Source: an uncultured Acidimicrobiales bacterium
GTDB taxonomy: Bacteria; Actinomycetota; Acidimicrobiia; Acidimicrobiales; CAVXTF01
Direction of reading: 5' to 3'
NCBI GenBank assembly: GCA_963701375.1
Contig: CAVOZT010000005.1
Location: 393,601 to 457,600 of the forward strand
Length of the DNA stretch: 64,000 bases
Of the stretch, positions 3,490 through 63,703 are shown piece by piece (the first letter of the stretch is position 1; every line of letters begins with the position of its first letter). The notes beneath the pieces are model-generated. The model had not been told where the DNA came from, did no database searches, and was given only the letters and a program-made list of their open reading frames with translations. The position numbers were made by a program, and so were the translations under genes.

Positions 3490-3715
3490 GGTTGCTCGTT
3501 CGCCAAACGACCGGGGAAAGCCGCCCGATGCCGAAGCGGGAAGCATGCAGGTTCTCGGCGCTGCGAGCTCGATGTGGCCCCAAAGTGGGCGGAATGAATC
3601 TCGTGCTCAGCGTCGTGCGCACGAGTGGTTGCGTCGCTTAGCTATCAGGCGTGGATGACTTCTCGGCCCAGGCGTCGCCCCTGAAGGCACCTAAAATTGC
3701 TATCGGACCTCTGGG

Positions 3716-4150
3716 TTGGCTCTTCTCGTCGACGTTCGGCCATCATCCTCCGTGGCTTTTTCCTTCGTTTACCTAACCTTCTGCCGCCTTTTGAGACTTG
3801 TCTGCTCTGCACGTCGCTCCGAGCCCGACAAGGAGATCAAGATAATGGTGCTCCGGCACCAGGTCCGTGTCCTGCAACGCCAGCTCCGTGCACGCGTGCG
3901 GTATCGACCGTCGGATCGGGCCATCCTGGCCGCGTTCAGCCGTTTGCTTCCTAGTAACCGGTGGCGGTCGTTCCTAGTCACCCCCGAGACCCTGCCGCGA
4001 TGGCATCGCGAGGCGGCAAACACAAGTGGCGACACTGGGGAAACAACGAGGTCGTGAGCTATCGACTCGCAAGTACACATCCTCGGATCACCGACCATCC
4101 GACCGGTGAGTTCGTCACCCAGATTGCCCGCAATTCTGATGCGTACTCCT
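3716..4150 (+). mobile_element. transposase/integrase remnant (IS481/IS3-like rve family), internally deleted and frameshifted
   Basis: ORF 3716..4057 carries a typical N-terminus: ...DKEIKIMVLRHQVRVLQRQLRARVRYRPSDRAILAAFSRLLPSNRWRSFLVTPETLPRWHRE. The next frame keeps only ...HPRITDHPTGEFVTQIARN (catalytic-core end). The whole DDE core is missing and no terminal repeats were seen. Confidence 0.6.
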
Positions 4151-4236
4151 CTTCGTCTAACGCGAGGCAGATCAGCGCATCGACACGTCGGTCTGAGTCA
4201 GTAGGCAAGTTGCGTCGATGCCCCATGGCCTTCCCT

Positions 4237-5352: not shown

Positions 5353-5354
5353 CG

Positions 5355-6065
5355 CTATGGCTCACCTCGAGAAAGGCCTTTCCGGCTGCCTGCGATGAGG
5401 TGCTCGGCTGCGCGGGCGGCCAATGCCATAATCGTGAGCGCCGGGTTGGCTGATCCCTGTGTGGGAAGCACGCTTCCATCGGTGATGTACAAATTGCCGA
5501 CCGCGAAGGAACAAAGGTTGCGATCGACGACACCTTGTGAGTGCAAGGCAGCCATGCGACATCCGCCAACCAGATGTGCATAGCGATCGATGGTGATGAC
5601 CTCTTGGGCACCAGCGGCCTTGAGGATGATCTCCATCGTGTCCTGGGCGCTACGCATGAGCTTTCGATCGTTATCGCACTGGCTGTAGGAGAAGCAAGCA
5701 ACGGGCAGACCGAGGCGGTCCTTCTCCTCAGCGAGCGTTACCCGGTTGTCCGCGAGTGGGAGGAACTCGCACAGTGAGCCAAGGCTTGCCCAGTGGACAT
5801 AATCGCGCGCTAACCCCGTGCTAGCCGTGTCCATGGATTTGCGCGCCCGACGAAGAACGTTCGCTTCTTCCTCAAGCCGGTCTGCAAGATTCTCGTCGCC
5901 ACGACATCGCAATACGTTGGCGACATCGCCAAGAGCGGCGACGGCCACAGCTAAGTGCTCAACAAGCAGCTTCCCCAGAGTGCGATGATCGCAGCCCACA
6001 AGTGGAGTTTCGTCCTTTGTCGCTCGGCGGGGATCACTGTTCGTCAACTCCGCTAATAGCTGCAT
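5355..6065 (-). pseudogene. chimeric ORF: unrelated 85-aa N-terminus fused to the C-terminal 150 aa of a GMC oxidoreductase (paralog of 11428..13056)
   Basis: RDYVHWASLGSLCEFLPLADNRVTLAEEKDRLGLPVACFSYSQCDNDRKLM...ITDGSVLPTQGSANPALTIMALAARAAEHLIAGSRKGL aligns residue for residue with the C-terminus of the full-length GMC gene. The FAD-binding N-terminal 380 aa are absent. Confidence 0.7.
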
Positions 6066-6169
6066 CAGTAAGTAACGTTGCTCATCGAGAAGATCGAGCG
6101 AGTCTCCTTGTGGACGAGTTCCGTGGCTGGGTGAGGTGAAACCGTTTCATTGGGCCGTTTCATTGATCC

Positions 6170-6602
6170 TTAATGGGATTCCGCCGACTGAGCGAGAGCC
6201 CGCCGTTCCCCTGTCGACATCTTGCGCATGAGCGGTCGAAGCAACCGCATTTCTTCGCGACGCAAGTGCTTGGGTAGATCGTTGCGCAATGCATGGAGTT
6301 GCTGCCGGGCCGCCACGGACACCTGATCATCCACCGTCTGCGACAAAATTCTCGAAGACCTGAGTCATCGCGTCATGCTCGGCTCGAAGACGGACGCTGA
6401 GATCTTGACCCTGCTTCAAGACTCTGGTCGCCCTCGTCTGCAGCTCTGAGACACGCTCTAGATGTTCCTCCCAGCTTTGTTGGAGTAACCGTAGCAAGTG
6501 CTTAAAATCGGCAGGCTCGGCCTCTGCAAGCCGTGCCACTGCCTCCAGGAGTTGGCCATCGTCGATCCTCCTCCTCTCCAGGATTCGCCAGCGGTACATC
6601 AT
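6170..6602 (-). pseudogene. small helical protein, hemerythrin/HHE-like, apparently frameshifted
   Basis: ORF 6327..6602 ends ...FENFVADGG*. The overlapping frame continues QTVDDQVSVAARQQLHALRNDLPKHLRREEMRLLRPLMRKMSTGERRALAQSAESH* (stop at 6170-6172). The family call is weak. Confidence 0.35.
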
Positions 6603-6749
6603 CAGTCCTCCTCAGTCCTCCTCCTCCCTTGATGCGGTATACCCGACCCGCTATTGCCCTAACGAGCTTGGGGTTTTCGGCCGCAGAAATCGGGTACTGC
6701 CCGAGAGGAGTATCCGCCTACCTATCCCCACCGATGTCGAGGGCCGCAG

Positions 6750-7205
6750 ATGGACACCGCTGAACACCGAGGGACCATTTTGAGCGATCCTGAGGAGTCA
6801 TCCCTAACCGCAGGCGACAAGTCGACGGCTGAACTTCTCGCCGACTTCTCCCGAGAATTGACGTCCCTGGTCCACCACGAGATCGAGCTGACCAAGACCG
6901 AAATGCTCGAAAAGGGGAAGAGGGCGGGACTCGGGGCAGGCTTTCTCGGTGCAGGCGCCGTAGCCGGCTTGCTCGCGGCGGCTTGCTTCACGGCCACGGC
7001 CATCGCAGCAATCTCTTTGGCGATTCCCGTCTGGGCAGCAGCCCTAGCCGTCGGGTTCTCCTACCTTGTAGTCGCAGGCACCGCGGCCCTTGCAGGACGC
7101 AAGGAGTTAGTCGAAGCTTCGCCGCCGATCCCCGGCCTGGCCATGGAAAGCGCAAAGGAGGATGTCGCATGGCTCAAGCTCCAGACGAAGTCCGCGAAGC
7201 GATAG
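6750..7205 (+). CDS. phage holin family protein (actinobacterial Holin-X / DUF1469)
   Basis: 151 aa. ELLADFSRELTSLVHHEIELTKTEMLEKGKRAGLGAGFLGAGAVAGLLAAA is followed by two TM helices and a KEDVAWLK tail, which is the typical Holin-X layout. Confidence 0.6.
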   Translation: MDTAEHRGTILSDPEESSLTAGDKSTAELLADFSRELTSLVHHEIELTKTEMLEKGKRAGLGAGFLGAGAVAGLLAAACFTATAIAAISLAIPVWAAALAVGFSYLVVAGTAALAGRKELVEASPPIPGLAMESAKEDVAWLKLQTKSAKR

Positions 7206-7484
7206 AGACAGACCGCGAGCAGCTGGGCGAGACCGTTCGCGCCCTGGCTGCAAAGGCCGACGTGAAGGCTCGGGTTCAACCACAAGCTCTCCGAGCGCAA
7301 GGAGCAAGTCCGCCATCTCGCGGCCGAAGTCCGATCGACCGCCACCGACCTGTCTCCAGAATCCGTTGCTTCTGGAGCAAAGCACGTCGAAAAAGCAATC
7401 ATGCGGCTATCACCACCGCAGGCACTCGCGGTCGGCCTGACACTCGGCTATGGCGTCGGGCGGCTCCGAAGACACCGCCGTTGA
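7169..7484 (+). pseudogene. DUF3618 domain protein, frameshifted near 7280
   Basis: MAQAPDEVREAIETDREQLGETVRALAAKADVKARVQ is in one frame. The C-terminus LSERKEQVRHLAAEVRSTATDLSPESVASGAKHVEKAIMRLSPPQALAVGLTLGYGVGRLRRHRR* is in the next frame (own translation). Confidence 0.6.
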
Positions 7485-7604
7485 GCCGGACCTCCGCTCC
7501 CTTCGTATGGCATGGCACTCCTCTTTCATCGTCTTCTGTATCAGATGCAGATGGAGTGGGTAGAAACCCGACCGGTCACGTCGATGAAGGAAGGAGATCC
7601 TTCA

Positions 7605-7829
7605 ATGCCCTCGAAGCAAGCGAATGTGAAAAACGAGAAGCAATACGAGGCCTTGAAGGACAAGGGGATGTCCAAGCAGCGCGCCGCCCGTATCGCCAAC
7701 TCTCCCAATGCCTCGCACAATGGCGGGAAGAAGTCCGGATCAGGTGGGAGTTCAAAGCAGGGAGGCACCACAGCGGAACACAAAGCCGCCGGCCGCAAGG
7801 GTGGCCGGGCGTCCGCGAAGTCTTCCTAG
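7605..7829 (+). CDS. small basic protein (DUF7218-like)
   Basis: Within ORF 7512..7829. The ATG at 7605 is preceded by GAAGGAAGGAG. Sequence: MPSKQANVKNEKQYEALKDKGMSKQRAARIANSPNASHNGGKKSGSGGSSKQGG... Confidence 0.6.
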   Translation: MPSKQANVKNEKQYEALKDKGMSKQRAARIANSPNASHNGGKKSGSGGSSKQGGTTAEHKAAGRKGGRASAKSS

Positions 7830-7862
7830 GTCCCGCGTCCAGGCAGTCGCCCCGAGATTGAG

Positions 7863-8381
7863 ATGGCCCTGACTGATTTGGTAGTAAACGCGCGTCAGTG
7901 GGCGCGGTCTCAACGTGACGCCTATGGCCATGGCGAGGACCGTCCTCTCGGCGCCTACCTCGGAGTGATGGCCACATACGCTGTCGTCGTCACCGCGGCG
8001 GGAAACGCAGTCCGAATCTCAAGACGATCTCTTCCTCCATCGTGGAGTTTCGGCGATGTCGTCTTGCTGAGCATCGCCACCCACAAAGTCGCTCGCCTGA
8101 TAAGCAAGGATCCCGTGACAAGTCCATTGCGCGCACCAATGACTCGCTTTGAAGGAAGGAGCGGCGAGGCGGAACTCTCCGAGGAGGTGCGTGGAACCGG
8201 GCTGCGCCACGCGCTTGGCGAACTCGTCACTTGCCCCTTCTGTCTCGATCAGTGGGTCTGCACTGCCTTGATCTTCGGGCTTATCTCGGCTCCGAAGCTC
8301 GCCCGAACCGTAATGACCGCCTTCGCCGCAGTCGCAGCCGCCGACGTCATGCATCACCTCTACGCGCAGCTCCAAGACTGA
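7863..8381 (+). CDS. DUF1360 domain membrane protein
   Basis: 172 aa. Contains LLSIATHKVARLISKDPVTSPLRAP and CPFCLDQWV, the conserved DUF1360 blocks. Confidence 0.7.
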   Translation: MALTDLVVNARQWARSQRDAYGHGEDRPLGAYLGVMATYAVVVTAAGNAVRISRRSLPPSWSFGDVVLLSIATHKVARLISKDPVTSPLRAPMTRFEGRSGEAELSEEVRGTGLRHALGELVTCPFCLDQWVCTALIFGLISAPKLARTVMTAFAAVAAADVMHHLYAQLQD

Positions 8382-8462
8382 AAGCGGATGTGCATTGTGT
8401 CCCGTCCCTACTTACTCGCCGAACTGCTCCCTAGGGCAACGGCGATCCACTAAAGGAGTCTC

Positions 8463-10269
8463 ATGAAGGCCACGGTGGCTGACTTCATCCTCGAGCGTCT
8501 GCGAGGCTGGGGCGTCGAGCACGTGTTCGCATACCCCGGCGACGGCATCAACGGACTGCTCGCCGCTTGGGGTAGAGCTGACAACCAACCGGTGTTCGTA
8601 CAAGCCCGCCACGAAGAGATGGCTGCCTTTGAGGCAGTCGGATATTCCAAGTTCTCCGGCAAGGTCGGAGTTTGCGCGGCGACGTCTGGGCCCGGGGCGA
8701 TTCACCTTCTGAACGGTCTCTACGACGCACTCCTCGACCATGTTCCTGTTGTGGCCATCGTGGGCCAAACAAGTCGCTCTGCCATGGGCGGCTCCTACCA
8801 GCAAGAAGTGGACCTGCTGAGCTTGTTCAAGGACGTCTGCCACTCGTACGTGCAGGTGGTCACCGTTCCGCAACAGCTCCCGAACGTCCTCGACCGAGCC
8901 ATTCGGACTGCACATTCTCAGCACGCTCCCACGTGCATCATCGTCCCGTCGGACGTTCAAGAGCTCAAATACGAGCCGCCGGAGCATGCGTTCAAAATGG
9001 TGCCGTCGAGCATCGGTACATCGTGGCCACGGGTGACTCCAGACGACGCTGCAGTGGCTCGAGCTGCCGACATTCTCAACGCTGGTGAGCGTGTGGCAAT
9101 TTTGATCGGGCAAGGCGCTCGCGGAGCAGGAGAAGAAATCACCGCGCTTGCCGATCTTCTGGGCGCCGGCGTCGCCAAAGCTCTGCTCGGGAAAGACGTT
9201 CTCGCCGACAATCTTCCCTTCGTCACGGGTTCCATCGGCCTGCTCGGAACACGGCCGTCGTACGAACTCATGATGGCCTGCGACACCCTGCTCTCCGTCG
9301 GCACCAACTTCCCCTACACCCAATTCATGCCCGAACTCGAACAAGCACGCGCCATTCAAGTCGACATTGACGGCAGTCGTATCGGTATGCGCTACCCGTA
9401 CGAGTTGAACATCGTCGGCGACGCGGAAGCGACCCTGCAGGCCCTTCTCCCTCTCGTCACACGCAAATCGGACCGAAGTTGGCGTGATCGCATCGAAGGC
9501 AGCATCGGTCATTGGCGAAACACCGTCGAACGCCAAGCCATGACCGACAGCGGCCGAGCAGACACCGTGAATCCAATGCGACTGGTCTGGGAACTCAGTC
9601 AACACGCTCCGTCCAACGCCATCATCTGTGCCGACTCCGGGTCCGCCGCCAACTGGTACGCACGCCATCTGTCGATGCGCGACGAGATGCGTGGCTCACT
9701 GTCAGGTACCTTGGCCACAATGGGGCCGGGCGTCCCCTACGCAATCGGCGCGAAGTTTGCACATCCTGATCGGCCGGTCATCGCTCTCGTCGGTGATGGC
9801 GCGATGCAAATGAACGGGATGGCCGAGCTCATCACCGTCGCCCGGTATTGGCGAGGTTGGGACGACCCGCGACTGGTAGTCGCCGTCCTTCACAACAACG
9901 ACCTCAACCAGGTCACGTGGGAGATGCGCGCCATGGAAGGCGCCCCCAAATTCGTCGAGTCCCAAACTCTTCCCGACGTCGACTACGCCGGATTCGCAAC
10001 CAGCCTGGGGCTCAGCGTCGCTCATGATCACTGAACACGAGAAACTCGAATCTGCCTGGAAAGAAGCGTTCTCTGCCGACCGCCCCACTGTCCTTGACGT
10101 GCATACCGACCCTGACGTCCCCCCAATCCCGCCGCATGCCGACTTCGAACAGGTCAAGAGCATGACAAAGGCGCTGATTGCCGGCGACGAGGATGCGTGG
10201 GGTGTCATACGCACCGGGGTCAAGCAGAAGGTTCAGGAATTCTTGCCTGGCCAGAAGGGGTCGTCATGA
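8463..10269 (+). pseudogene. thiamine-diphosphate enzyme, pyruvate oxidase/dehydrogenase (PoxB)-like, frameshifted near 10015-10025
   Basis: ORF 8463..10034 (MKATVADFILERLRGWGVEHVFAYPGDGINGLL...GDGAMQMNG) stops at ...SLGLSVAHDH*. ORF 10024..10269 in the next frame carries the expected C-terminus: ITEHEKLESAWKEAFSADRPTVLDVHTDPDVPPIPPHADFEQ. Confidence 0.8.
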
Positions 10270-51207: not shown

Positions 51208-52140
51208 ATGCCCACGACTCTCATTGCACCCGGGATAACTCAGATCGACACTCTCCTCGGCGGCTGGGAGCGGATGACGGCGGGGTACCTGGTGGACGGG
51301 GACGCACCGCTTCTGATCGAGACGGGTAGCCAGAGCTCGGTCCCCGTGCTTTTGGAGGCGCTTGCCGAGCTCGGGGTCTCGCCGGGCGAGCTGGCAGGGG
51401 TCGCGGTGACCCATATCCACCTCGACCACGCCGGCGGTGTCGGCGACGTGTCACGCGTGTTTCCCTCCGCGACCGTGTACGTGCACGAGAAAGGTGCGCG
51501 TCACCTGGTTGACCCGACACGGCTCGTGGACTCGGCGAGCAGGGTCTACGGCTCTCTTCTCGACTCGCTCTACGGCAGGCTCGATCCGACTCCCGCCGAA
51601 CGGATCCACGTTCTCGCCGACGGGGAAGAGATCCGCACCGGCAGCGACCACGTCCTCACCACCGTCGATTCCCCCGGGCACGCGAAGCACCATCTGGCGC
51701 TCCACGACTCGGCAAGTGGGATCCTCTTCGCAGGGGACGCCGTCGGAGTCCGGCTCCCCGACGCTGGGGTGCTCCGGCCGGCGACTCCTCCTCCCGACTT
51801 CGACCTCGATCAGGCGGTCAACTCGTTGCACCGATTCGCGCAACGCCATCCGACCGGTCTTGCGCTGGCGCACTACGGGCTCGTGGGCGACGCCGAGCCT
51901 GTCCTGGTCGAAGCAGAGCAGACGCTTCGCGCGTGGGCAGAGGTGGCGGAGCAGGCTTGGAAGTCTGGAAGGGATATCGCGACCGCGTTGGCGGAGTCGT
52001 TCGCAACCGATTATTCGGCGCTCGACTCAGCCGAGCGTTCGAAGCTCGAGACCCTGAACGGCGTGCACTCGAACGCTGCGGGCTTCCGCAGATGGTTGGA
52101 GAAACGCTCGACCGATGGAGCTCAGGAAGTCAGCGTGTAA
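51208..52140 (+). CDS. MBL-fold metallo-hydrolase
   Basis: ATG at 51208 inside ORF 50626..52140. Contains VAVTHIHLDHAGGVGD (HxHxDH), SPGHAKHH and AGDAVG. Confidence 0.8.
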   Translation: MPTTLIAPGITQIDTLLGGWERMTAGYLVDGDAPLLIETGSQSSVPVLLEALAELGVSPGELAGVAVTHIHLDHAGGVGDVSRVFPSATVYVHEKGARHLVDPTRLVDSASRVYGSLLDSLYGRLDPTPAERIHVLADGEEIRTGSDHVLTTVDSPGHAKHHLALHDSASGILFAGDAVGVRLPDAGVLRPATPPPDFDLDQAVNSLHRFAQRHPTGLALAHYGLVGDAEPVLVEAEQTLRAWAEVAEQAWKSGRDIATALAESFATDYSALDSAERSKLETLNGVHSNAAGFRRWLEKRSTDGAQEVSV

Positions 52141-55100
52141 GTGGTCGACGCAGCCACCGTGTGCGAGTGAGGAACCTTCGCGACGACGGTGTGCGCGCCG
52201 GGTGCACCTGCCACGCGGAGCCCGCGAATATGACCGATGCAGCTGAACGTTCCGTCGCTCCCGACCGTCGCAGTGCAGATCTTGAATCTCGGCTTCGTCG
52301 GCACGCCCGTCTTGTAGATGATCTTCACGCTCGTCCCCGGGGTGAAACCTTCTCCTAACACGGTGACCTTGGTGCGGGGTGGACCTGTCGAAGGGGAGAT
52401 CACGAGCTTTATTCCGGTCACCGTGAGGTCGGCGACTCCGAGCACGCCCGAGGACGTGTCAGTGGCGGTGACGACGACGTCACCTGTTGCGACGCCGGTG
52501 GCGACGCCCTGTGAGCCCGCGGCGTTGGAGATCGTGGCGTCGCCGGTGTTCGAGGTAGACCAGGTGACCGAGTCCGTGATGTTCCGGGTGCTCAGGTCCG
52601 AGTAGTGGCCCGTCGCGGTGAACTGCTTCGACCCGTGCAGTGCGACCGAAGCCTGTGTGGGCGAAACCGTTATCGCCAACAGCACGGCAGGCAAGACGGT
52701 CACCACGGCCGTCCCGTTCAGAACAGACGATGTGTCGGTGGCGGTGATCGTGGCGACACCGGTCCCGACGCCCGTCACCTCACCCTGTGAGCCGACGGAG
52801 TTAGAGACGGAAGCAACCGATGTGTCCGACGACGACCAGGTGACTACATCGGTGAGGTCCTTGGTGGTCCCGTCGGAGTAGTGACCCGTCGCGCTGAACG
52901 GCTGCGTCTCGCCGTTGGGTACTGACGCTGCTGTCGGCGAAACGGTGACGGCGACGAGCACGGCGGGGAGCACCGTCACCACGGCCGTCCCGTTCAGAAG
53001 CGAGGAGGGGTCGGTGGCGGTGATGGTCGCCGCTCCGGTACCCGTCCCGGTGACGAGTCCCTTTGACCCCGAGCTGTTGGAGACGGTCGCGACCGACGTA
53101 TCAGACGACGACCAGGTCACCACGTCGGTCAGGTCTTGAGTGGTCCCGTCGGAGTAATGACCGGTTGCCGTGAATTGCTGAGTCTCGCCGTTGGGCACGG
53201 AGGCGGCCAAGGGTGAAACCGTCACCGCGACGAGCACGGCGGGAAGAACCGTGACGACCGCGGTCCCGTTCAGAACAGACGATGGGTCGGTGGCGGTGAT
53301 GGTCGCTGCTCCGGTACCCGTCCCGGTGACGAGTCCCTGCGACCCCGAGTTGTTCGAGACCGTCGCGACCGACGTGTCAGACGACGACCACGTGACGACG
53401 TCTGTCAGGTTCTTCGAGCTCAGGTCGGAGTAGTGCCCGGTGGCGGTGAGCTGTGTGGTCTTGCCATTGGCCACCGAAGCCGTCAAAGGCGAAACGGTGA
53501 CCGCCACGAGCACGGCGGGAAGAACCGTGACGACCGCGGTCCCGTTCAGAACAGACGACGGATCGGTGGCGGTGATGGTCGCTGCTCCGGTACCCGTCCC
53601 TGTGACGAGTCCCTGTGAGCCCGCGCTGTTGGAGACGGTCGCGACCGACGTGTCAGACGACGACCACGTGACGACGCCTGTCAGGTTCTGAGTGCTCAGG
53701 TCGGAGTAATGGCCGGTCGCCGTGAACTGCTGCGTCTCGCCATCGGGTACGGACGCGGCCGTCGGCGACACGGTTATCGCCAATAGAACGGCGGGGAGAA
53801 CGGTCACGACGGCCGTGCCGTTCACCAGTGACGACGGATCGGTAGCGGTTATGGTCGCCCCCCCGGTGCCCGTGCCGGTCACCTCACCCTGGGAGCCTGA
53901 GGTGTTCGAGACCGTGGCGATCGTGGGGTCGGAGGTCGACCAGGTGACGACGTCGGTCAGGTCCTTCGTGGTCGCATCGGAGTAGTGACCGGTGGCGAGG
54001 AACGGGGCTGACTCTCCTACGGGGACCGAGGCTGCCAAAGGAGAGACGGTGATCGCGACCAAGACTGCGGGGAGAACGGTTACGATTGCCGTACCGTTCA
54101 AAAGGGAAGACGGGTCGGTTGCCGTGATCGTTGCGGCCCCCGTCCCGACTCCGGTAACCAATCCTTGCGAGCCGGACGCGTTCGACACGGTCGCTGCGGT
54201 CGTGTCGGACGACGACCAGGTGACGGTATCGGTGAGATCCTTGGTCGTCCCGTCCGAGTAGCGGCCTGTGGCGGTGAGTTGCTCGGATTCTCCGCTCGGC
54301 ACGGATGCCGCAACGGGTGAGACCGTGACTGCGATAAGCACCGCGGGGAGAACCGTCACGAGTGCCGTACCGCTCGAAAGGGATGACGGGTCGGTTGCGG
54401 TGATGGTCGCTGCGCCCGTACCAGTGGCGGTGACCAGTCCTTGCGAGCCGGATGCGTTCGAAACTGTGGCGACCGAGGTGCTCGACGACGACCAGGTCAC
54501 CGTCGAGGTCAGGTCGCTCGTGGTTCCGTCGGAGTAGTGACCTGTCGCCGTGAACTGATGGTTCTCACCATTGGGCACTGATGCAGCCGCGGGCGACACC
54601 GTGACCGCGACGAGAACAGCGGGGAGAACGGTGACCAAGGCAGTTCCACTGAGTAGCGACGACGGGTCGGTGGCGGTGATGGTCGCCGCGCCGGTACCCG
54701 TTGCCGTGACGTGCCCCTGCGAACCCGACGCGTTGGAGACCGTCGCGATGGAAGTGCTCGAGGACGACCACGTCACTGCGGACGTCAGGTCGGACGTCGC
54801 CCCGTCGGAGTAGTGGCCGGTTGCAGCGAACGGAAGAGTGTCGCCGTTCGGTATCGACGTGGCCGGCGGCGAAACCGTGACCGCCACGAGAACAGCGGGG
54901 AGAACGGTGACTAGGGCAGTTCCACTGAGTAGCGACGACGGGTCGGTGGCGGTGATCGTCGCAGCCCCGGTTCCCGTGGCGGTGACCAGTCCCTGCGATC
55001 CCGAAGCGCTGGAGACGGTCGCGACGGAAGTGCTCGACGACGACCACGTGACGGAGTTCGTGAGGTTGAGCGTGCTCAGGTCGGAGTAGTGGCCCGTTGC

Positions 55101-56666
55101 AGTGAACTGCTGGGTCTCTCCTTTCGGGACCGACGCTGCCGTCGGCGACACGGTTACGGCGACGAGAACGGCCGGCAGCACCGTCACCGCGGCCGTCCCG
55201 TTCAACAGCGACGAGGGGTCGGTTGCGGTGATAGTCGTCGCGCCTGTACCCGTGGCGGTGACGAGTCCGTGCGATCCCGAAGTGTTGGAGACGGTGGCAA
55301 CCGTTGTGCTCGAGGACGACCACGTGACGGAGTTCGTGAGGTTGAGCGTGCTCAGGTCCGAGTAGTGGCCCGTCGCGGTGAACTGCTGGGTCTCGCCCTT
55401 CGGAACCGACGCCGCCGTCGGCGACACGGTTACGGCGACCAGAACGGCCGGCAGCACGGTGACGGCGGCCGTTCCGTTCAACAGCGACGAGGGGTCGGTT
55501 GCGGTAATGGTGGCCCCGCCGGTACCCGTAGCGGTGACGAGTCCCTGCGATCCCGAGGCGTTGGAGACGGTGGCAACCGTTGTGCTCGACGACGACCACG
55601 TGACCGTGCCAGTCAGGTTCTGGGTCGTCGCGTCCGAGTAATGACCCGTTGCGGTGAACTGCTGGGTCTCGCCCTTAGGAACCGACGCCGCCGTCGGCGA
55701 CACGGTTACGGCGACCAGAACGGCCGGCAGCACGGTGACGGCGGCCGTTCCGTTCAACAGCGACGAGGGGTCGGTTGCTGTAATGGTCGTCGCGCCCGCC
55801 CCGGTTGCCGTCACGAGTCCCTGGGAGCCAGAGGAGTTGGAGACGGATGCCACAGAATTGCTCGAGGACGACCACGTGACCGTGTTCGTGAGGTTCTGAG
55901 TGGTCGCATTCGAGTAGTTACCCGTGGCGGTGAACTGCTGAGTCTCGCCTTTGGGCACGGAGGCTGCGGTCGGCGACACGGTGACTGCGACAAGGACGGC
56001 GGGGATCACGGTCGCAACGGCGGTACCGAATACCGACCCGACGGTGGCAGTGATCGTTGCGACACCTGTCCCGACGGCGGTTGCCTGGCCCTGCGAACCG
56101 GATGCGTTGGAGACCGTGGCAACCGTTGTGCTCGACGACGACCAGGTGACGTTGCTCGTGAGGTTCTGCGTGCTCAGGTCGGAGTAATGCCCGGTTGCGA
56201 GGAACGCCGCGGACTCGCCGAGCGGAATGGACGCGGCCGCGGGTGAAACCGTGATCGTGAGAAGCACGGCGGGGAGCACGGTCATAGCCGCCGTGCCGGA
56301 TACTGCAGTCCCTTCGGCGGCGGTGATCGTGGCCACCCCGGTTCGGATCGCAGTGGCCAGTCCCTGCGATCCGGTCGTGTTCGACACCGTCGCGACCGAC
56401 GAGCTCGAGGTTGACCAGGTGGCGGTGTTCGTGATGTTCTGCGTGCTCAGGTCGGAGTAGTGCCCGGTAGCGGTGAACTGCTCGGTCTCGCCGATCGGCA
56501 CGGACGCAGTGGTCGGCGAGACGGTTATCGACAACAGGATCGGGCTTCCGAGCGCTGTTGCCGGCACCACACTTGCTGCAATCGCAGTCAGCGCCGCCAA
56601 CACCGCCATGACGACGAGCAGCAAACGACCGCCCACTTTTCGCGGCCCCGCCAGGTGCGTCCCCAT
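52122..56666 (-). CDS. secreted giant protein: signal peptide + 15 tandem Big_2 (bacterial Ig-like) repeats + C-terminal IPT/TIG-like domain
   Basis: 1514 aa. The N-terminus is RKVGGRLLLVVMAVLAALTAIAASVVPATALG. There are 15 units of ~92 aa of the form VTVSPxxASVPxGETQQFTATGHYSD(L/G)(S/T)TxxLTxxVTWSSSxTSVATVSNxSGSQGLVTGTGTGAATITATDPSSxLNGTAVVTVLPAVLVA. The tail is KLVISPSTGPPRTKVTVLGEGFTPGTSVKIIYK... No LPXTG motif or C-terminal TM helix was seen. Confidence 0.85.
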   Translation of the reverse strand: MGTHLAGPRKVGGRLLLVVMAVLAALTAIAASVVPATALGSPILLSITVSPTTASVPIGETEQFTATGHYSDLSTQNITNTATWSTSSSSVATVSNTTGSQGLATAIRTGVATITAAEGTAVSGTAAMTVLPAVLLTITVSPAAASIPLGESAAFLATGHYSDLSTQNLTSNVTWSSSSTTVATVSNASGSQGQATAVGTGVATITATVGSVFGTAVATVIPAVLVAVTVSPTAASVPKGETQQFTATGNYSNATTQNLTNTVTWSSSSNSVASVSNSSGSQGLVTATGAGATTITATDPSSLLNGTAAVTVLPAVLVAVTVSPTAASVPKGETQQFTATGHYSDATTQNLTGTVTWSSSSTTVATVSNASGSQGLVTATGTGGATITATDPSSLLNGTAAVTVLPAVLVAVTVSPTAASVPKGETQQFTATGHYSDLSTLNLTNSVTWSSSSTTVATVSNTSGSHGLVTATGTGATTITATDPSSLLNGTAAVTVLPAVLVAVTVSPTAASVPKGETQQFTATGHYSDLSTLNLTNSVTWSSSSTSVATVSSASGSQGLVTATGTGAATITATDPSSLLSGTALVTVLPAVLVAVTVSPPATSIPNGDTLPFAATGHYSDGATSDLTSAVTWSSSSTSIATVSNASGSQGHVTATGTGAATITATDPSSLLSGTALVTVLPAVLVAVTVSPAAASVPNGENHQFTATGHYSDGTTSDLTSTVTWSSSSTSVATVSNASGSQGLVTATGTGAATITATDPSSLSSGTALVTVLPAVLIAVTVSPVAASVPSGESEQLTATGRYSDGTTKDLTDTVTWSSSDTTAATVSNASGSQGLVTGVGTGAATITATDPSSLLNGTAIVTVLPAVLVAITVSPLAASVPVGESAPFLATGHYSDATTKDLTDVVTWSTSDPTIATVSNTSGSQGEVTGTGTGGATITATDPSSLVNGTAVVTVLPAVLLAITVSPTAASVPDGETQQFTATGHYSDLSTQNLTGVVTWSSSDTSVATVSNSAGSQGLVTGTGTGAATITATDPSSVLNGTAVVTVLPAVLVAVTVSPLTASVANGKTTQLTATGHYSDLSSKNLTDVVTWSSSDTSVATVSNNSGSQGLVTGTGTGAATITATDPSSVLNGTAVVTVLPAVLVAVTVSPLAASVPNGETQQFTATGHYSDGTTQDLTDVVTWSSSDTSVATVSNSSGSKGLVTGTGTGAATITATDPSSLLNGTAVVTVLPAVLVAVTVSPTAASVPNGETQPFSATGHYSDGTTKDLTDVVTWSSSDTSVASVSNSVGSQGEVTGVGTGVATITATDTSSVLNGTAVVTVLPAVLLAITVSPTQASVALHGSKQFTATGHYSDLSTRNITDSVTWSTSNTGDATISNAAGSQGVATGVATGDVVVTATDTSSGVLGVADLTVTGIKLVISPSTGPPRTKVTVLGEGFTPGTSVKIIYKTGVPTKPRFKICTATVGSDGTFSCIGHIRGLRVAGAPGAHTVVAKVPHSHTVAASTTYTLTS
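52420..56530. repeat. 276-bp tandem repeat array (15 copies) inside the Big_2 gene
   Basis: The periodicity is visible in antisense shadow ORFs spaced exactly 276 nt apart (55102, 55378, 55654). Units 4-6 are near-identical over their first two thirds. Confidence 0.85.
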
Positions 56667-57461: not shown

Positions 57462-58389
57462 TCAGCGGAGCGGCTCGTACCGGACGTCAGTCAGCTCCTC
57501 CGAGATCTCCCACAGGCGCCTGGCGGTATCGCGATTCCTTGCCGCTCTGACGAAATGCACCTGCTTCGGATATCCGCGCATTCCGAAGAGTTGATCCGGC
57601 CCGTAGTACCGGGCGCCCGCGACGTCGGGGGAGGTGGCGGCATACAGGGCCGGAAGAGCACCCATCGCCGCAGTCTGCGCAAAGACCGCGTTCTCCAGGT
57701 TGGTCACCTTCTCCATGATCTTCGACCCGCTCATCTGAGGCCCGACACCCTGCAGGTTGGTCGCGGCGTAGCCGGGATGAGCGGCGACGCTCACGATGTC
57801 TTTGGATGAAACCCTCCTGTCGAGCTCGAGGGTGAAGAGTTGGTTCGCGAGCTTGGACTGGGCGTAGGCGGTCCACTTTCCATAGCGTCTCTGTCCCTGC
57901 AGGTCGTCGAACCTGATGCGTCCTATCCTCGCGACCTCACTGGAGATCGTGACGACCCGGGCACCGGGTCGCGCGATCAGCCTGTCTACAAGCAACCCGG
58001 TGAGCGCGAAGTGACCGAGGTGGTTGGTGCCGAACTGCATCTCGAAGCCGTCGGCGGTCTCGCGAACGCGGGATGGCCATCACCCCCGCGTTGTTCAAGA
58101 GGATGTCGAGACCCTCATACCCGGCGGAGAATTCCGCAGCGAAGGTGCGTACCGAAGCCAGATCGGAGAGATCGAGATGTTCGAGGCGCACGTCCGAGCC
58201 CGGCGCACTCTCGAGGATCCGTTTCACGGCGGCATCGCCCTTTGCCTGGTCTCGGCACGCCAGCACGACGCGCGCACCGGCTGTCGCCAAAGCGAGTGAT
58301 GCTTCGAACCCGAGACCGCTGTTCGCCCCGGTGACGAGAGCGGTGCGGCCTTTTTGATCCGGGATGTCCTTTGTGGTCCACCGTGCCAT
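57462..58389 (-). pseudogene. short-chain dehydrogenase/reductase (SDR), frameshifted near 58060
   Basis: ORF 57937..58389 (TALVTGANSGLGFEASLALATAGARVVLACR...LLNNAGVMAIP) is followed in another frame by RVRETADGFEMQFGTNHLGHFALTGLL...YAQSKLAN (ORF 57462..58040). The lesion looks like one C missing from a C-run. Confidence 0.8.
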
Positions 58390-58914: not shown

Positions 58915-59332
58915 TCAACTCGCGGGGGTGAGCTCGACAACTGGGATAACGCGGGACGTCTTCTCCTGGTACTCACCAAACCCCGAATAGCGCCGTGCCT
59001 GCTCGGCATAAATCCGGTCGCGATCGGGTCCGACCACAGGCGCCGCATCCGCCTCGTAGGTCTCGACTCCGACTTCGGCGGTCACCCGGGGGTTGGCGAC
59101 CAGATTGCGGTACCAATCCGGATTCGTGTCGGCGCCGGCCTTCGAGGCGAAGACGAAGCGCCGTCCGTCTAGATCGAGATACATCATCGGATTGACCCGC
59201 TCCTTACCGGTCTTCGCTCCGGTGGTGTGTAGCAACAGAACGGGCGCGTCTTTGAAGGGGCCACCCACCCGACCTTGGTTCGCCGCGGAACTCGTCGATG
59301 ATCTTGCGGTTCCAGTCCACAACTTCGCTCAT
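58915..59332 (-). pseudogene. deazaflavin (F420)-dependent nitroreductase family (DDN-like), frameshifted near 59280
   Basis: The ATG at 59332 gives MSEVVDWNRKIIDEFR. The next frame continues ANQGRVGGPFKDAPVLLLHTTGAKTGKERVNPMMYLDLDGRRFVFASKAGADTNPDWYRNLVANP (ORF 58915..59322). Confidence 0.75.
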
Positions 59333-59359: not shown

Positions 59360-60502
59360 TTAATGGTTCGGCGCCTGCCAGTGGACCAGATCCTTACTGC
59401 GCGCGATGCCGATCTTTGCATGTCCCCAACCGCCGAAAGCGGTGAGCTCGTTGCTGCCGGCGTAGAGAAGGTAGTAGTACCCGCCGTTGGCGCGGTCGTT
59501 GCAAAGGAAGGCGGAGTTCGCCCATTCGTAGTTCACACTCGATATTCCACTTGCCGAGTCCCAGGGGGCCTTCGGGACGTCCAGTTCGTAGCCGCCTTTC
59601 CAGTCGAGCCATCCAGAGGGTCGGTCGGGGTTGCCGGCAAGCGTGTAGAGCCATGGCTGGTCGAGGACGTTGGAGGTGGCCATCAACCGCCACGTCCCGT
59701 CAACTGACAAGAACTCGTCGCGTTCGATCGTGTCTCCGTTGACACGGATGTCCGGCTTGCCGACGTATCGCCACGGCCCGCTCGGTGAGCCGTCGGGAGA
59801 CCACGCAATCTCGAAGGCCTGCTGGTTTCCGGCGACTCCTGCCTTGAACCCGAGCATCAACCCGTCAGCTGTCCACGCCAGAGAGCCATCGATCATCCGA
59901 TCAGTCGGGCCGGGAGCGAGGTTCTGTGCCAATGGATGCGGAGGCGACCACGTGACGAGATCGGTGGAGGTGCGGTAGTAGAGGCGGTCTTGCTCGCCCC
60001 CCGATTGTCCGGGGTCCGACTGGTAGGTCACGACGAACAGGCCTTCTGGGTCCCGGACCACCTCGGGCGAAGCGACGCCCAACGTGCCCGGTTGGGCCGG
60101 CCAGGCGACGGGAGCGGTCCAGTGGCTCAGGTCTTCACTAGTCGATGTGGCGATGTCCCAGTAGACGCCCCCCGGGATGGAGCGGTCGTACCTCACGTAG
60201 CTGAACAGCATGTGCCAACGATCGGCGTACCAGATCAACGCCTCGTCCTTCTCACCTGCTGAAGGAGACGAGAGGATCGGGTTGTGCAGGCTCGACCAGT
60301 CGATGGCGAGCGAACCCTTTGCACCTATTACGCACTCGTGGTCAGCGCCGGCCGCAACGACGACACCGGGCTTCGGAGATGTCGGCGACGATCCGTGGTT
60401 GGTGTTGTCCGCGCACGAAACGCATGCCAGGGAGATGAGTGCGGACAGGACGGTAAGTTTGGCTCCGCTCGAGTAGCGCCTTGCGCGGCCGCTACGCATC
60501 AC
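59360..60502 (-). CDS. lipoprotein with five-bladed beta-propeller glycosidase-like fold (GH43/32 clan; family uncertain)
   Basis: 380 aa. The lipobox-like signal is LTVLSALISLACVSC. Repeated blade motifs are WYADRWHMLFS, GLFVVTYQS, DGLMLGFK, DGTWRLMATS and YYYLLYAGS...IGIARSKDLVHW. It overlaps the patatin gene by 11 nt. Confidence 0.5.
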   Translation of the reverse strand: MMRSGRARRYSSGAKLTVLSALISLACVSCADNTNHGSSPTSPKPGVVVAAGADHECVIGAKGSLAIDWSSLHNPILSSPSAGEKDEALIWYADRWHMLFSYVRYDRSIPGGVYWDIATSTSEDLSHWTAPVAWPAQPGTLGVASPEVVRDPEGLFVVTYQSDPGQSGGEQDRLYYRTSTDLVTWSPPHPLAQNLAPGPTDRMIDGSLAWTADGLMLGFKAGVAGNQQAFEIAWSPDGSPSGPWRYVGKPDIRVNGDTIERDEFLSVDGTWRLMATSNVLDQPWLYTLAGNPDRPSGWLDWKGGYELDVPKAPWDSASGISSVNYEWANSAFLCNDRANGGYYYLLYAGSNELTAFGGWGHAKIGIARSKDLVHWQAPNH

Positions 60503-62042
60503 CGTGGATCACGTCGTGGCTCAGAACATGAACCGCGTGAAGAGCCAGGTGTCCGAGCTCGACTTTGTCGGCCACGGACAGTTGAGCGAGTTGCGCGCCA
60601 CTAAGCCGGACGCCGTTCCAGCCGAGTCGGTCGTATTCGGCGTCGACTTTCTCGAGCGCGCCTCCGAGGTCGACGCCGGGCAGGTAGGCGGCCAGGCAGT
60701 GCTCCAGCCAGTACCTCATGTTTCGATAGCCGAGCGCGAAGTCGCTCTGGCGGAACCTGATGTCGAAGAATCCACCGAAATGAAAGAGAAACGATCCGGC
60801 CAACTGCTTCGAAGGGGGTTCCGTAACCGAGGGGTCGAGCGTCGGTGACACGACCTCGACCTTGATCGGGTCTTTCGACTGGAGGCCGGTGGCCTCACGC
60901 ACAAGCGCGTCGAGAACGGACTCGCAGTCGCCTGAGTCGACTGACGGCGGATTCTTCGGGGCTCGATTCGCTTGACTCGTAACGTTTGCCTGCCCGTCTC
61001 GAACCTGTCGCAAGGCCGAACCCACAGATGCGATGACGGCATCGCGTACGGCGGCGGCCTGGTCGTCCGAAAGCTCTGCGGCGGAGATACCTTCGTCGAT
61101 CCCTTTGCACACGGCTGGAGCCACGAATTTCACCCATTCCAAGTGAGAGTTCGTCTTCTGGAGCCGCTTCAGATCCTGATATATCGATTGCGACCGGCTC
61201 ATGCTGAATGAGTGAGTTCCTGTCCGGACCCAAGGAGGCAACGGGGCATCTCCGCCCCAGACCGGAGACGGGGTGGGGGCGGGAAAGGCGGGGTCCGGAT
61301 GAATGAGGACGTAAACCCGCTCGTCGTCGCTCTCGATCCCTTGGGCCAGGTCGATCGTGCGTCCGAGCGGCTCGTTGTCGACCGTCCCGCCGTCGGTGTA
61401 CCAGAACAGGCCGTCGGCCGGGAAGCCCTGAAGGCCGGCTTGGTCGTAACTCGTCTTGTCGGCCAGCCGGTTCAACTGCTTCGCCGGAAAACCGATGGCG
61501 TTCGACCCAGACGCGATTGCCGCTTCTGCGTGCCTCAGGAAGTCATCGGATCCTTCGGATGACGTGAGCGTCACGCCGTACCAGTCGAGGAAGGTCGACG
61601 CGTTCACCGTTGTGTTGCGGACGAGATCAGGTAGTGAGTAAGTGAGACCGGCAAGGCTCGCGAGCGCCATCGACAGCCTGACGGGCTCCTTTTGCCAGTT
61701 CGCCTGAGGCCCTTCGGGAACACCGTCTTTTCCGAGAACCTTCGAAGCCATCTGGGTCAGCGCCGCAGAGGAAAGCGGCGAATCGGTCGAATGGGTCGTC
61801 ATCGCCTTGAACGACACGTTCTCCACCCACGCCGCCGACATCAGGTCTACGCCGTCGACATCTCGAAGAAGCGATCGTGCTGTCAGCAGACCGGTGATCG
61901 ATCCCGCCGATGCAGATGCGATCGAATCGATGACGACGACATCTTCGCCGAGCACCTTCGCGGCAACGATCAGAGCCGCAAGCGCGCCTCCTTCATATGC
62001 ACCAAGTGAGACCGCGCCGGGAATCGTGAGGGAGAGACGCAA
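60492..62042 (-). CDS. patatin-like phospholipase with ~250-aa uncharacterised C-terminal region
   Basis: 516 aa. The N-terminal strand and oxyanion region is LTIPGAVSLGAYEGGALAAL. The nucleophile elbow IASASAGSITG is SxSxG rather than GxSxG. The Asp motif is WYTDGGTVDNEPLG. Confidence 0.75.
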   Translation of the reverse strand: MRLSLTIPGAVSLGAYEGGALAALIVAAKVLGEDVVVIDSIASASAGSITGLLTARSLLRDVDGVDLMSAAWVENVSFKAMTTHSTDSPLSSAALTQMASKVLGKDGVPEGPQANWQKEPVRLSMALASLAGLTYSLPDLVRNTTVNASTFLDWYGVTLTSSEGSDDFLRHAEAAIASGSNAIGFPAKQLNRLADKTSYDQAGLQGFPADGLFWYTDGGTVDNEPLGRTIDLAQGIESDDERVYVLIHPDPAFPAPTPSPVWGGDAPLPPWVRTGTHSFSMSRSQSIYQDLKRLQKTNSHLEWVKFVAPAVCKGIDEGISAAELSDDQAAAVRDAVIASVGSALRQVRDGQANVTSQANRAPKNPPSVDSGDCESVLDALVREATGLQSKDPIKVEVVSPTLDPSVTEPPSKQLAGSFLFHFGGFFDIRFRQSDFALGYRNMRYWLEHCLAAYLPGVDLGGALEKVDAEYDRLGWNGVRLSGAQLAQLSVADKVELGHLALHAVHVLSHDVIHGDA

Positions 62043-62052
62043 CGAGACGTCC

Positions 62053-62775
62053 TCAGCCTATGTACCACTTGCCGTTTATCTGCTGGAGCGGGACAGGACT
62101 AATCGAGTTGTTGGCTGCGACTGCCGCCGCGTAGGCCTGGTCGAAACTGACGCCGTTTCCCGGCATTCCCGTGCTGGCCGAAGAGTTCGACTCGCAGTTG
62201 TTGCTGGTCGTGATGAAAGGGGCGCACAGTTCACCCGTGACCGCCACAAGCGCCTCGTTGCCCTGAACGACCTGGTTTACGACCGTCCCGCTCCCCGTCG
62301 CGCCGGTGAACGATGACTCGTGGCTCACGCACACCGCCTGCGAAGAGGGAACCGGGAAAGTGCAAACTTGCGCACCGTTGTTGGCGAGGACCGCCGAGAT
62401 GAATCCGTTCACCGTGGAGGTGGGTGAGTTCCCGCCCCCGCCGACGAGGACGACGATGAGCACGACCACCACGACGACAACAGCCACTCCTCCGCCGATC
62501 ATGGCGAGCATCTTGTTATTGAGCCCTGAGCGCGCCGGACCTTGCGCGGGGAAGCCGTAAGGAGGGACACCCCCTTGACCCTGGTAGGGCGGTGATTGCC
62601 CCGGCGGTGCGTACGGAGGTGGGGTCCCTCCGTAGGGCGGAGGAGTGCCACCGTAGGGAGGCGCCGAAGGTGCGCCGTAGGGAGGCTCGGAGGGGTTTCC
62701 GTAGGGTGGCACCGAGGGGTCGCCGCCGTAAGGCGGCGGCTGGGGATTCTCGTTCCCACCAGGATTAGAGTCCAT
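62053..62775 (-). CDS. single-pass membrane protein: PPYG-repeat N-terminus, TM helix, Cys-containing extracytoplasmic domain
   Basis: 240 aa. About 10 (P/A)PPYG(G/N) repeats are followed by MLAMIGGGVAVVVVVVVLIVVLV, then a ~110-aa domain with 4 Cys ending in INGKWYIG. Confidence 0.6.
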   Translation of the reverse strand: MDSNPGGNENPQPPPYGGDPSVPPYGNPSEPPYGAPSAPPYGGTPPPYGGTPPPYAPPGQSPPYQGQGGVPPYGFPAQGPARSGLNNKMLAMIGGGVAVVVVVVVLIVVLVGGGGNSPTSTVNGFISAVLANNGAQVCTFPVPSSQAVCVSHESSFTGATGSGTVVNQVVQGNEALVAVTGELCAPFITTSNNCESNSSASTGMPGNGVSFDQAYAAAVAANNSISPVPLQQINGKWYIG

Positions 62776-62909
62776 CTTCGTCTCCCTCAGCCTGCATGTT
62801 CCGGGACCGGAATGGTCCTCGGACCGCCGGGAATACAGTAGGCGACCGCTGGTCGTGGGAGGTGAGCCCAGACCGAGAGCCTGCTCTTTTGCCGATCATC
62901 TCCTCACGA

Positions 62910-63703
62910 TCAGAGAGAGATCAGCCCCTCGAGGTGTTGCGCGATCACGGGCCACGATTCGCACGCCGGATCAATCAGTTCTCGGTGGCCAAGGCCTTTG
63001 AGCGGTACGTACGACACGTCGTCGCCGAGCCCGCATCCCAGCTTCAGGTAATCGCTGCTCATCGACGGCGGCACAACCGTGTCAGACAACCCGTGCACGA
63101 GTACCTGGGGGACCCCGATCGGCAGGATCGCGGCGGGCGACCCCGCTCGATACGGTTCGGGTCTCTCCTCAGGTGATCCTCCGAGGAACCGTGAGACCGC
63201 GCCGTTGCCGAGCCAGAGCTCGTGGCCTCGAACCAGGTCTATGACACCCGCGAGCGAGACCGCGGCGGCGGGCCGCACGATCGGCTCAAACCCCGTCGCA
63301 CGTCAACGAGCCTCGGGCCCGGCGGCAGCCCAAAGCGCGAAACAACCACCGACCGAGTGACCGCAGGTGACGAGCCGTCGCGCGTCGACTCCAGGAAGTC
63401 GTTCGACGTGGTCCACTGCTCTGCTGATGTCGTCGAAGGTCAACGGCCATCCGCCACCACCACCGAGCAAACCTACGCGTCGGTACTCGATGTTCCAGGC
63501 CGCCCAACCACGTTCGACTGTCGCCCGGGCGAGCCCGTTCATCAGAGCCTTCGTATAGATTGACCGCCAATACCCTCCATGGATCAACACACGACCGGGA
63601 TGGCGCGTCCTTCCGGAATATCGGGGAGCCACGATCCCCGACCTGGCATCTCAGGTTGCCATATCGATGCCTGGTGCGCCTCACGGCTGAACGGTACCGC
63701 CAA
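62910..63703 (-). pseudogene. alpha/beta hydrolase (HGGYW / GHSxGG esterase-formamidase type) with a frameshift and an in-frame TGA
   Basis: ...FSREAHQASIWQPEMPGRGSWLPDIPEGRAIPVV is in one frame and LIHGGYWRSIY...LVTCGHSVGGCFALWAAAGPEAR* in the next (shift near 63590). After the TGA at 63303-63305 the same frame continues RATGFEPIVRPAAAVSLAGVIDL...VLVHGLSDTVVP...GHRELI. The start is uncertain (the TTG at 63703 is a candidate). Confidence 0.7.

Follow-up and report, generated by a model that had tools for sequence, protein, structure and literature searches.

Three tightly packed genes in an Acidimicrobiales genome, encoding a PPYG-repeat membrane protein, a patatin and a propeller protein, are probably recent neighbours and not a dedicated system

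Do three genes that lie end to end on one strand, close enough to be translated together, belong to one system? The question is raised by a locus in a 64-kb stretch of DNA from an uncultured soil Acidimicrobiales bacterium (GenBank assembly GCA_963701375.1, contig CAVOZT010000005.1, positions 393,601 to 457,600), the whole of which is referred to here as the window. Its minus strand carries three intact open reading frames (ORFs), which encode a bitopic membrane protein with a Pro/Tyr/Gly-rich tail (the PPYG protein), a patatin-like protein and a protein with a predicted beta-propeller fold. An original prediction, made from the sequence, proposed that they form a coherent envelope-remodelling or conflict system. 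Comparative analysis did not support this proposal: the trio was found only in the nearest relatives of the window, and PADLOC yielded no defence match above chance level. We consider it likely (probability roughly 0.75) that these are three independently functioning genes that recently became adjacent in one narrow Acidimicrobiales lineage, with no dedicated three-gene system.

The genomic surroundings of each family in other genomes carry this reading. Patatin orthologs with 58-72% identity to the window protein were located on seven independent long contigs, where their neighbours were entirely different: ABC transporters, a GDSL lipase, GH4, Usp, a GHMP kinase, and a set of trpD-like, acyl-CoA dehydrogenase and WhiB genes. 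Neither the propeller nor the PPYG partner was found on these seven contigs by tblastn. In a survey of 78 patatin loci with 5-kb flanks, taking one genome per species, no propeller gene occurred within 5 kb of a patatin gene (0/78), and a distant homolog of the PPYG ectodomain was seen only in two sister metagenome-assembled genomes (MAGs), L013 and L019. The propeller family was surveyed at 80 metagenome loci with 52-75% identity. A PPYG gene was present at none of the 80 and a patatin gene at one (L092, 75%), upstream of the propeller gene. The original prediction had made its proposal depend on conservation of the neighbourhood in related genomes; the trio was conserved neither at the 78 patatin loci nor at the 79 more distant propeller loci, and the adjacency across divergent genomes that marks a conserved three-gene operon was not observed.

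In L013 (6588-7370) and L019 (6665-7396) the ectodomain homolog, 28-34% identical, is part of a bitopic protein encoded downstream of a 65%-identical patatin. This protein has a cytoplasmic GWWQASDGKWYPPE motif ('WYPPE') and one transmembrane (TM) helix, and the gene order is opposite to that of the window. A general association between patatin and ectodomain was assessed with an iterated hidden Markov model against all ORFs of about 170 loci and was rejected, since positives (L013/L019, with a weak control match at L104) did not rise above background.

The original prediction would also have been refuted by clear homology of each gene to an independent function, and this too was found. The usual neighbours of the propeller gene are GH4 (34 of 80 loci), an acetyl-xylan/glucuronyl-esterase-like hydrolase (31 of 80) and GH5, with a Glucosamine_iso-like gene directly upstream. 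This conserved set of carbohydrate genes is a carbohydrate-utilisation context, and its recurrence suggests a glycan-utilisation locus, so far uncharacterised, that is typical of Acidimicrobiales from peat and soil. Locus L095 (1-9137) and 30-40 others in the range L093-L171 combine propeller homologs with GH5 cellulase-like, GH4 and Glucosamine_iso/6PGL-like genes; loci of this type also carry an acetyl-xylan/glucuronyl-esterase-like gene and a TauD-family dioxygenase.

Patatins of the 65-70%-identity clade lie near acyl-CoA dehydrogenase, a trpD-like gene and WhiB. In a distant patatin clade (36-38% identity) an acyl-CoA dehydrogenase gene ends about 20 nt upstream of the patatin gene, and an MMPL transporter gene follows on the opposite strand. 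This arrangement was seen in more than a dozen genomes among L046-L083 (in L054 at 3695-4978, 5001-6557 and 6583-9684). It is more conserved than the neighbourhood in the window and more suggestive of lipid metabolism. The likely role of the patatin would be turnover of membrane or storage lipid feeding fatty-acid catabolism, to which the acyl-CoA dehydrogenase/MMPL context lends weak backing.

The trio was present in the window and in its nearest relatives, L010, L091 and L092, whose patatins are about 71-78% identical to that of the window. Identity of the patatin is 78% in both L010 and L091, and in L091 the propeller and PPYG proteins are 75% and 60% identical. These relatives are collinear with the window over the whole region, from a BD-FAE esterase through the F420H2-quinone reductase to a short-chain dehydrogenase/reductase (SDR), and the shared order of the trio is thus explained by shared descent of the collinear region. 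The backbone runs from a Pro-kumamolisin-like peptidase and the BD-FAE esterase to the PPYG gene and on to the F420H2-quinone reductase and SDR. Its variable members are GGDEF-EAL genes before the PPYG gene and, after it, the patatin gene, the propeller gene and a group of cupin, major facilitator superfamily (MFS) and epimerase genes, in that order.

Several states of this backbone were recovered. In L089 and L090 the PPYG gene (60%) is followed directly by the propeller gene (77%), without a patatin gene. In L174 it is followed by MFS genes, and both patatin and propeller genes are missing. L172 has the PPYG gene, a 192-aa ORF, PAS-GGDEF and EAL genes, and then the propeller gene. The spacer 3' of the PPYG gene is homologous between L089 and L091/L010, which therefore marks the patatin gene as a clean indel. 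Both spacers of the trio measure 33 nt in L091 and L010; because of this, the 10-nt gap and overlap in the window are regarded as a derived compaction. The GGDEF/EAL, MFS, cupin and epimerase genes that sister lineages have on this backbone have also been lost in the window.

Some gene calls at these loci are broken. The propeller homolog in L172 (8808-9900) is split by a frameshift near 9460 and the PPYG gene call of the same locus is truncated, while the PPYG gene of L174 is apparently interrupted. They suggest that these long-read MAGs contain indel errors, or else that such accessory genes often decay.

We propose that the adjacency arose where the backbone, collinear elsewhere, is prone to indels. 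The PPYG gene would be the backbone resident, with the propeller gene, and then the patatin gene, variably present beside it. The window lineage would subsequently have shortened the two 33-nt spacers to a 10-nt gap and an overlap, and co-transcription and coupling here would reflect local deletion and compaction instead of a shared mechanism.

The packing itself was confirmed by the ORF map, with the three genes placed as first described. Ten nucleotides separate the PPYG stop codon (TGA) from the patatin TTG codon, and the stop codon is overlapped by a Shine-Dalgarno sequence, GAGGA. No patatin start other than TTG is usable, given an in-frame TAG six codons further upstream; the TTG aligns with a conserved Leu in the N-terminal 'MxxLRLSLTIPG' of homologs (alignment A1, 28 patatin homologs down to 38% identity). 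The patatin stop codon (TAG) falls within the start region of the propeller gene, GTGATGCGTAG, so that the two genes overlap by 11 nt if GTG is the start and by 8 nt if ATG is. The original prediction of a 10-nt gap, an 11-nt overlap and spacing compatible with co-translation was correct on all these points, with the shorter overlap if the ATG is used. From the spacing we infer that the two downstream genes are probably translationally coupled in the window.

Co-transcription of the trio in the window genome is also probable. The only sizeable non-coding gap is the 134-nt region upstream of the PPYG gene, which makes it the likely promoter region for a common transcript. A consensus scan found no promoter- or terminator-like sites between the three genes, which is weak evidence in a high-GC actinobacterium. 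The single terminator-like site lay upstream of the trio in the BD-FAE region, in a scan that is uninformative for such a host, and the lack of a sigma-70 consensus in the 134-nt region is equally uninformative for the host phylum. GC content was flat over the region, and no further copies of the PPYG, patatin or propeller gene were found within the 64-kb window. Co-transcription at this locus does not show shared function.

Table. Positions of the three genes, their predicted functional elements and flanking features, counted from the first nucleotide of the window or, where stated, in residues of the protein.
Feature	Position	Strand	Remarks
PPYG gene	62053-62775	minus	240 aa; ATG start; Shine-Dalgarno-like GGGAGA 5' of start
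Pro/Tyr/Gly-rich tail of PPYG protein	residues ~1-85		
TM helix of PPYG protein	residues ~89-112		
Extracytoplasmic 4-Cys domain of PPYG protein	residues ~113-240		
4-Cys ectodomain, coding region	62056-62439	minus	phmmer search with ectodomain alone
Patatin gene	60492-62042	minus	516 aa; TTG start
Predicted nucleophile Ser45 codon, within SASAG	61908-61910	minus	invariant column in A1
Predicted catalytic Asp217 codon, within WYTDGG	61392-61394	minus	conserved in at least 90% of A1
Propeller gene	59360-60502	minus	380 aa from GTG; public gene call starts at ATG, 60499, 379 aa
Intergenic region, 134 nt	62776-62909	minus	upstream of PPYG gene; ORF map and sequence
BD-FAE-type esterase	62910-63632	minus	in-frame stop at 63303-63305
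F420H2-dependent quinone reductase	58915-59332	minus	frame change near 59283
SDR	57462-58389	minus	frame change near 58066
Repeat ORF	52122-56666	minus	1514 aa

Several points weigh against independent function. The genes are packed more tightly in the window than in its relatives, with a Shine-Dalgarno sequence over the upstream stop codon and an overlap of 8-11 nt, as expected if co-expression were being selected. At least four of the genomes or contigs sampled from the clade have kept the trio. L013 and L019 independently pair a patatin with a bitopic protein of homologous ectodomain, which could hint at a link between patatins and membrane proteins. Finally, a second patatin may sit at the ancestral position elsewhere in the genome of the window, the trio copy having been recruited to a new role.

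One rival reading is a young lineage-specific module, in which the patatin was recruited beside the PPYG protein, whose cytoplasmic PPY-rich tail would dock or regulate this lipase at the membrane, and the exported propeller would act on the glycan of the same envelope glycolipid, so that the three together remodel it. The compacted spacing with likely translational coupling, the retention of all three genes in the window, L010, L091 and L092, and the recurrence in L013/L019 of a patatin beside a bitopic protein with both a homologous ectodomain and a cytoplasmic 'WYPPE' motif are consistent with it. However, close relatives keep the PPYG and propeller genes without the patatin gene, or the PPYG gene alone, and the partners are missing from about 85 further patatin loci and 79 further propeller loci. 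The ectodomain, with 322 clusters at 50% identity, is common, and there is also a weak homolog of it near the control propeller locus L104, so that one extra patatin-ectodomain adjacency is within chance; moreover, the cytoplasmic tails of the PPYG and L019 proteins are unrelated. We regard such a module as unlikely. A more specific version, a newly born operon for envelope glycolipid remodelling, appears quite improbable: here the PPY tail would recruit or gate the captured patatin at the inner membrane face, the co-translated, exported propeller would trim the sugar head-group of the same glycolipid, and the L013/L019 adjacency would be a second pairing of lipase and anchor.

Independent function of the three genes is also consistent with what the proteins themselves resemble. 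PF01734 (Pfam) matched residues 5-226 of the patatin with 41.7 bits against a cut-off of 27.7 (E=1.9e-10). A word-indexed search recovered 388 clusters of homologs, nearly all of 510-560 aa, from Acidimicrobiales and other Actinomycetota MAGs. The protein is placed in an extensive, vertically conserved subfamily of actinobacterial proteins that are about 515 aa long and have no signal peptide. The nucleophile elbow reads S43-A-S45-A-G47 and the Asp motif D217-G-G. In A1, S45 is the same in every sequence, and so are W214, Y215, G218 and G219 of the WYTDGG motif; D217 is retained in at least 90%. Based on the dyad and the fold, the protein is predicted to be a Ser45-Asp217 lipid acyl hydrolase. 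No signal peptide or TM segment was detected in it, and it is therefore predicted to be cytoplasmic.

The two departures from the patatin consensus that had drawn attention to this protein, a missing first Gly of GxSxG and a missing GGGxRG motif beside the retained SASAG and DGG, were verified in the sequence and in A1. The window protein has S-A-S-A-G in place of the canonical G-x-S-x-G elbow; the first position is S or A in close relatives (S-A-S-A-G, A-A-S-A-G) and G in distant ones (G-A-S-A-G). Judged from these sequences, SxSxG is a conservative lineage variant of GxSxG in a large conserved family and not peculiar to this locus. The oxyanion/anion-binding box GGGxK/RG is listed as patatin block I (PMC7517356). 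In its place the window protein has P-G-A-V-S-L-G-A-Y-E-G-G, without a basic residue (PGAVSLGAYEGG instead of GGGxRG). G9, A10, L13 and G14 are near-invariant family-wide; because this N-terminal PGAVSLGAYEGG box is near-invariant across homologs, the missing GGGxRG is a family trait.

The AlphaFold2 (AF2) model of the patatin (mean predicted local distance difference test score, pLDDT, 83) comprises an alpha/beta core of patatin type and, C-terminal to it, an extended helical domain. The original prediction had described about 250 aa of unassigned C-terminal sequence. The lack of an above-threshold Pfam assignment was upheld, but the region measures about 230 residues and is weakly DUF3376-like (E=0.019, 14.7 bits against a cut-off of 25, profile positions 318-384). 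It is helical and contains a motif that is invariant in the family, HFGGFxDxxxRxxDFxLGY (A1). The only named NCBIfam match was TIGR03607, 'patatin-like protein' (E=1.6e-21, 77 bits against a cut-off of 262). TIGR03607/DUF3376 proteins (about 730 aa, actinobacterial and proteobacterial) have the same patatin domain and a C-terminal region that the window protein weakly resembles, but the latter is about 200 aa shorter and falls far short of the curated score cut-offs. Of 28 family members, only 9 touched DUF3376 at E<=0.1. On these scores the family is a distant sister subfamily of the TIGR03607/DUF3376 proteins, not a member. No literature treating DUF3376 together with patatin was found. Rv3091 of M. 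tuberculosis was considered as a relative and is not a close homolog, as it has canonical patatin motifs and a different architecture (Ser214, 564 aa; PMC7517356).

Searching PDB sequences with the family profile gave no meaningful match, and patatin structures were recovered only by fold. Foldseek aligned the core alone with CapE, CapV, PlpD, VipD and iPLA2-beta at 14-18% identity. The window protein shares fold, profile match and Ser-Asp dyad with the PF01734 patatins (potato patatin, Pseudomonas PlpD and ExoU, Legionella VipD, and CapV and CapE of the cyclic-oligonucleotide-based anti-phage signalling system, CBASS). It differs from them in its G-A-V-S-L-G oxyanion box and SASAG elbow and in a further, helical domain of about 230 aa at its C-terminus, whose invariant motif has no solved-structure match. 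It also lacks a secretion signal, an autotransporter domain, a cyclic-nucleotide partner and a toxin context.

These fold matches bear on the idea that the trio serves in conflict with phages or other bacteria: the patatin would be a membrane-attacking effector (resembling CapV/CapE of CBASS, or a secreted toxin), and the two envelope proteins would serve as sensor or immunity components. CapE and CapV are indeed the best matches in the PDB, but at E~1e-4, TM-scores of 0.25-0.47 and 14-18% identity they indicate generic patatin-fold similarity. PADLOC models matched neither the patatin nor the propeller, and the PPYG protein hit only PD-T4-6 at chance level (E=0.024). No cyclase (CD-NTase), secretion or immunity-type gene is adjacent, the neighbours being the esterase, the F420H2-quinone reductase and the SDR. 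The patatin has no signal peptide, its family is uniform in length and is found among acyl-CoA dehydrogenase, trpD-like, GHMP kinase, ABC transporter and MMPL genes and not in defence islands, and GC content is uniform over the region. A conflict role is, on this evidence, hardly credible.

The propeller protein was originally described as a lipoprotein with a glycosidase-like propeller, and a glycosidase-like fold and a lipoprotein-type signal with a relaxed lipobox were recovered. Its AF2 model is a five-bladed beta-propeller (pLDDT 79). Foldseek matched it to GH130, GH43, GH159, GH32, GH62 and GH117 at 12-17% identity and TM-scores of 0.5-0.65, with GH130, GH43 and GH159 ranking level with or above GH32. 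The Pfam GH32N profile gave E=4.8e-6 and 26.8 bits (cut-off 22.1), covering only profile positions 14-142 of 307; GH43 and BNR_2 scores in Pfam were sub-threshold, and NCBIfam BfrA reached 28 bits against a cut-off of 900. More than 600 clusters of homologs were found, mostly without Pfam annotation.

In alignment A2 of the propeller family, D86, D205, E260 and E263 are invariant and the Cys pair C57/C334 is conserved. The residues analogous to those of GH32 are K-D86-E, R202-x-x-D205 and E260/E263, and the canonical WMNDPN, RDP and EC motifs are absent. D86, D205 and E260/E263 fall in blades 1, 3 and 4, like the Asp/Asp/Glu catalytic sets of the five-bladed glycosidases and phosphorylases (GH32, GH43, GH62, GH117, GH130, GH159), with which the protein also shares the predicted fold, a weak GH32N match and homologs that sit among GH4, GH5 and esterase genes. 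It differs from them in its 12-17% identity to solved members and in the lack of the GH32 C-terminal beta-sandwich, for which there is no room because the protein has only 380 aa. From sequence and model together, it is predicted to be an exported glycosidase-like protein of the GH32/43/130 superfamily with no assignable CAZy family, and it may act as a carbohydrate-active enzyme on an extracellular or cell-envelope glycan. The N-terminus has a putative signal peptide, MMRSGRARRYSSGAKLTVLSALISLAC-VSC, with a lipobox-like 'LISLAC'. Upon motif inspection for a signal peptide ending in [LVI][ASTVI][GAS]-C, S-L-A-C fitted a relaxed lipobox only. Many homologs in A2 have L-A-G-C or L-A-S-C and some have no Cys. 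The protein is probably lipid-anchored.

For the PPYG protein, the originally proposed bitopic topology with a Cys-containing ectodomain was retained, and the count of about ten PPYG repeats was revised to eight PPY motifs, six of which are PPYG. C138, C149, C184 and C194 are invariant (alignment A3). Close homologs form only 14 clusters, and no family was found for the protein in Pfam, NCBIfam or PADLOC. A Pfam scan of 14 family members at E<=1 returned noise only, and no family was assigned. The ectodomain has a far wider distribution. When it was used alone in an exhaustive phmmer search of 1.84 billion representatives, with matches clustered at 50% identity, 322 clusters were obtained at E<=1e-3 and 98 at E<=1e-10. 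Its usual place is the C-terminus of proteins of 100-1000 aa, and its carriers among P0255-P0403 include a Ser/Thr protein kinase (P0335), an fn3 protein (P0269) and an alpha/beta hydrolase (P0300). On this sequence distribution the ectodomain is a common, promiscuous actinobacterial extracellular module without a Pfam model, and a candidate new domain family.

Proline-rich-tail bitopic proteins of Actinomycetota, which form no curated family, have the same N-in topology and low-complexity Pro/Tyr/Gly tail, and likewise one TM helix and a small Cys-containing extracellular domain. The PPYG protein is set apart from them by its 4-Cys ectodomain, which has no Pfam model and recurs C-terminally on kinases, fn3 proteins and hydrolases. 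It may be a membrane-anchored carrier of this common module, with a putative ligand-binding or scaffolding role.

All three genes belong to known superfamilies, as new and uncharacterised members; their combination is incidental and nothing about it is categorically new. As the comparative data show an incidental and recent juxtaposition, the trio has little weight as a system and does not merit further pursuit as a possible module for defence or envelope remodelling. What remains of value is, first, the patatin subfamily of about 515 aa, with its non-canonical oxyanion box and conserved helical C-terminus, often located by genes of fatty-acid catabolism or MMPL genes. The second is the glycosidase-like propeller family of more than 600 clusters, without CAZy assignment, from carbohydrate-utilisation neighbourhoods of soil Acidimicrobiales; the third is the unannotated 4-Cys extracellular module, which recurs on kinases and further membrane proteins. 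The locus also illustrates, cleanly and on a small scale, that an operon-like arrangement can arise from unrelated genes through indels and spacer compaction.

In the assembly, the trio is flanked by three disrupted genes. The F420H2-dependent quinone reductase is encoded in one frame for residues 1-17 and in another for residues 17-138, the SDR also changes frame, and the BD-FAE-type esterase contains an in-frame stop. Either the region is decaying and these are true pseudogenes, or the disruptions are errors of long-read assembly. If the region were decaying, the tight packing and the disrupted neighbours would reflect gene loss and at least one gene of the trio would be non-functional. The loss of the GGDEF/EAL, MFS, cupin and epimerase genes relative to sister lineages would fit such a history, as would the disrupted flanks. 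Yet the three focal ORFs are full-length and alignable end to end with their homologs, their catalytic and invariant residues are intact, and the flanking frameshifts may be assembly errors. We therefore consider decay of the trio very improbable.

Further along the minus strand, the 1514-aa repeat ORF consists almost wholly of about 17 near-identical repeats of about 85 aa ('VTVSPTAASVPxGETQQFTATGHYSD...ATITATDPSS...'), with an N-terminal signal/TM segment and a distinct C-terminal domain. A strong GC skew over this ORF is due to the repeats, and the protein presumably resembles Big_2/Ig-like repeat surface proteins.

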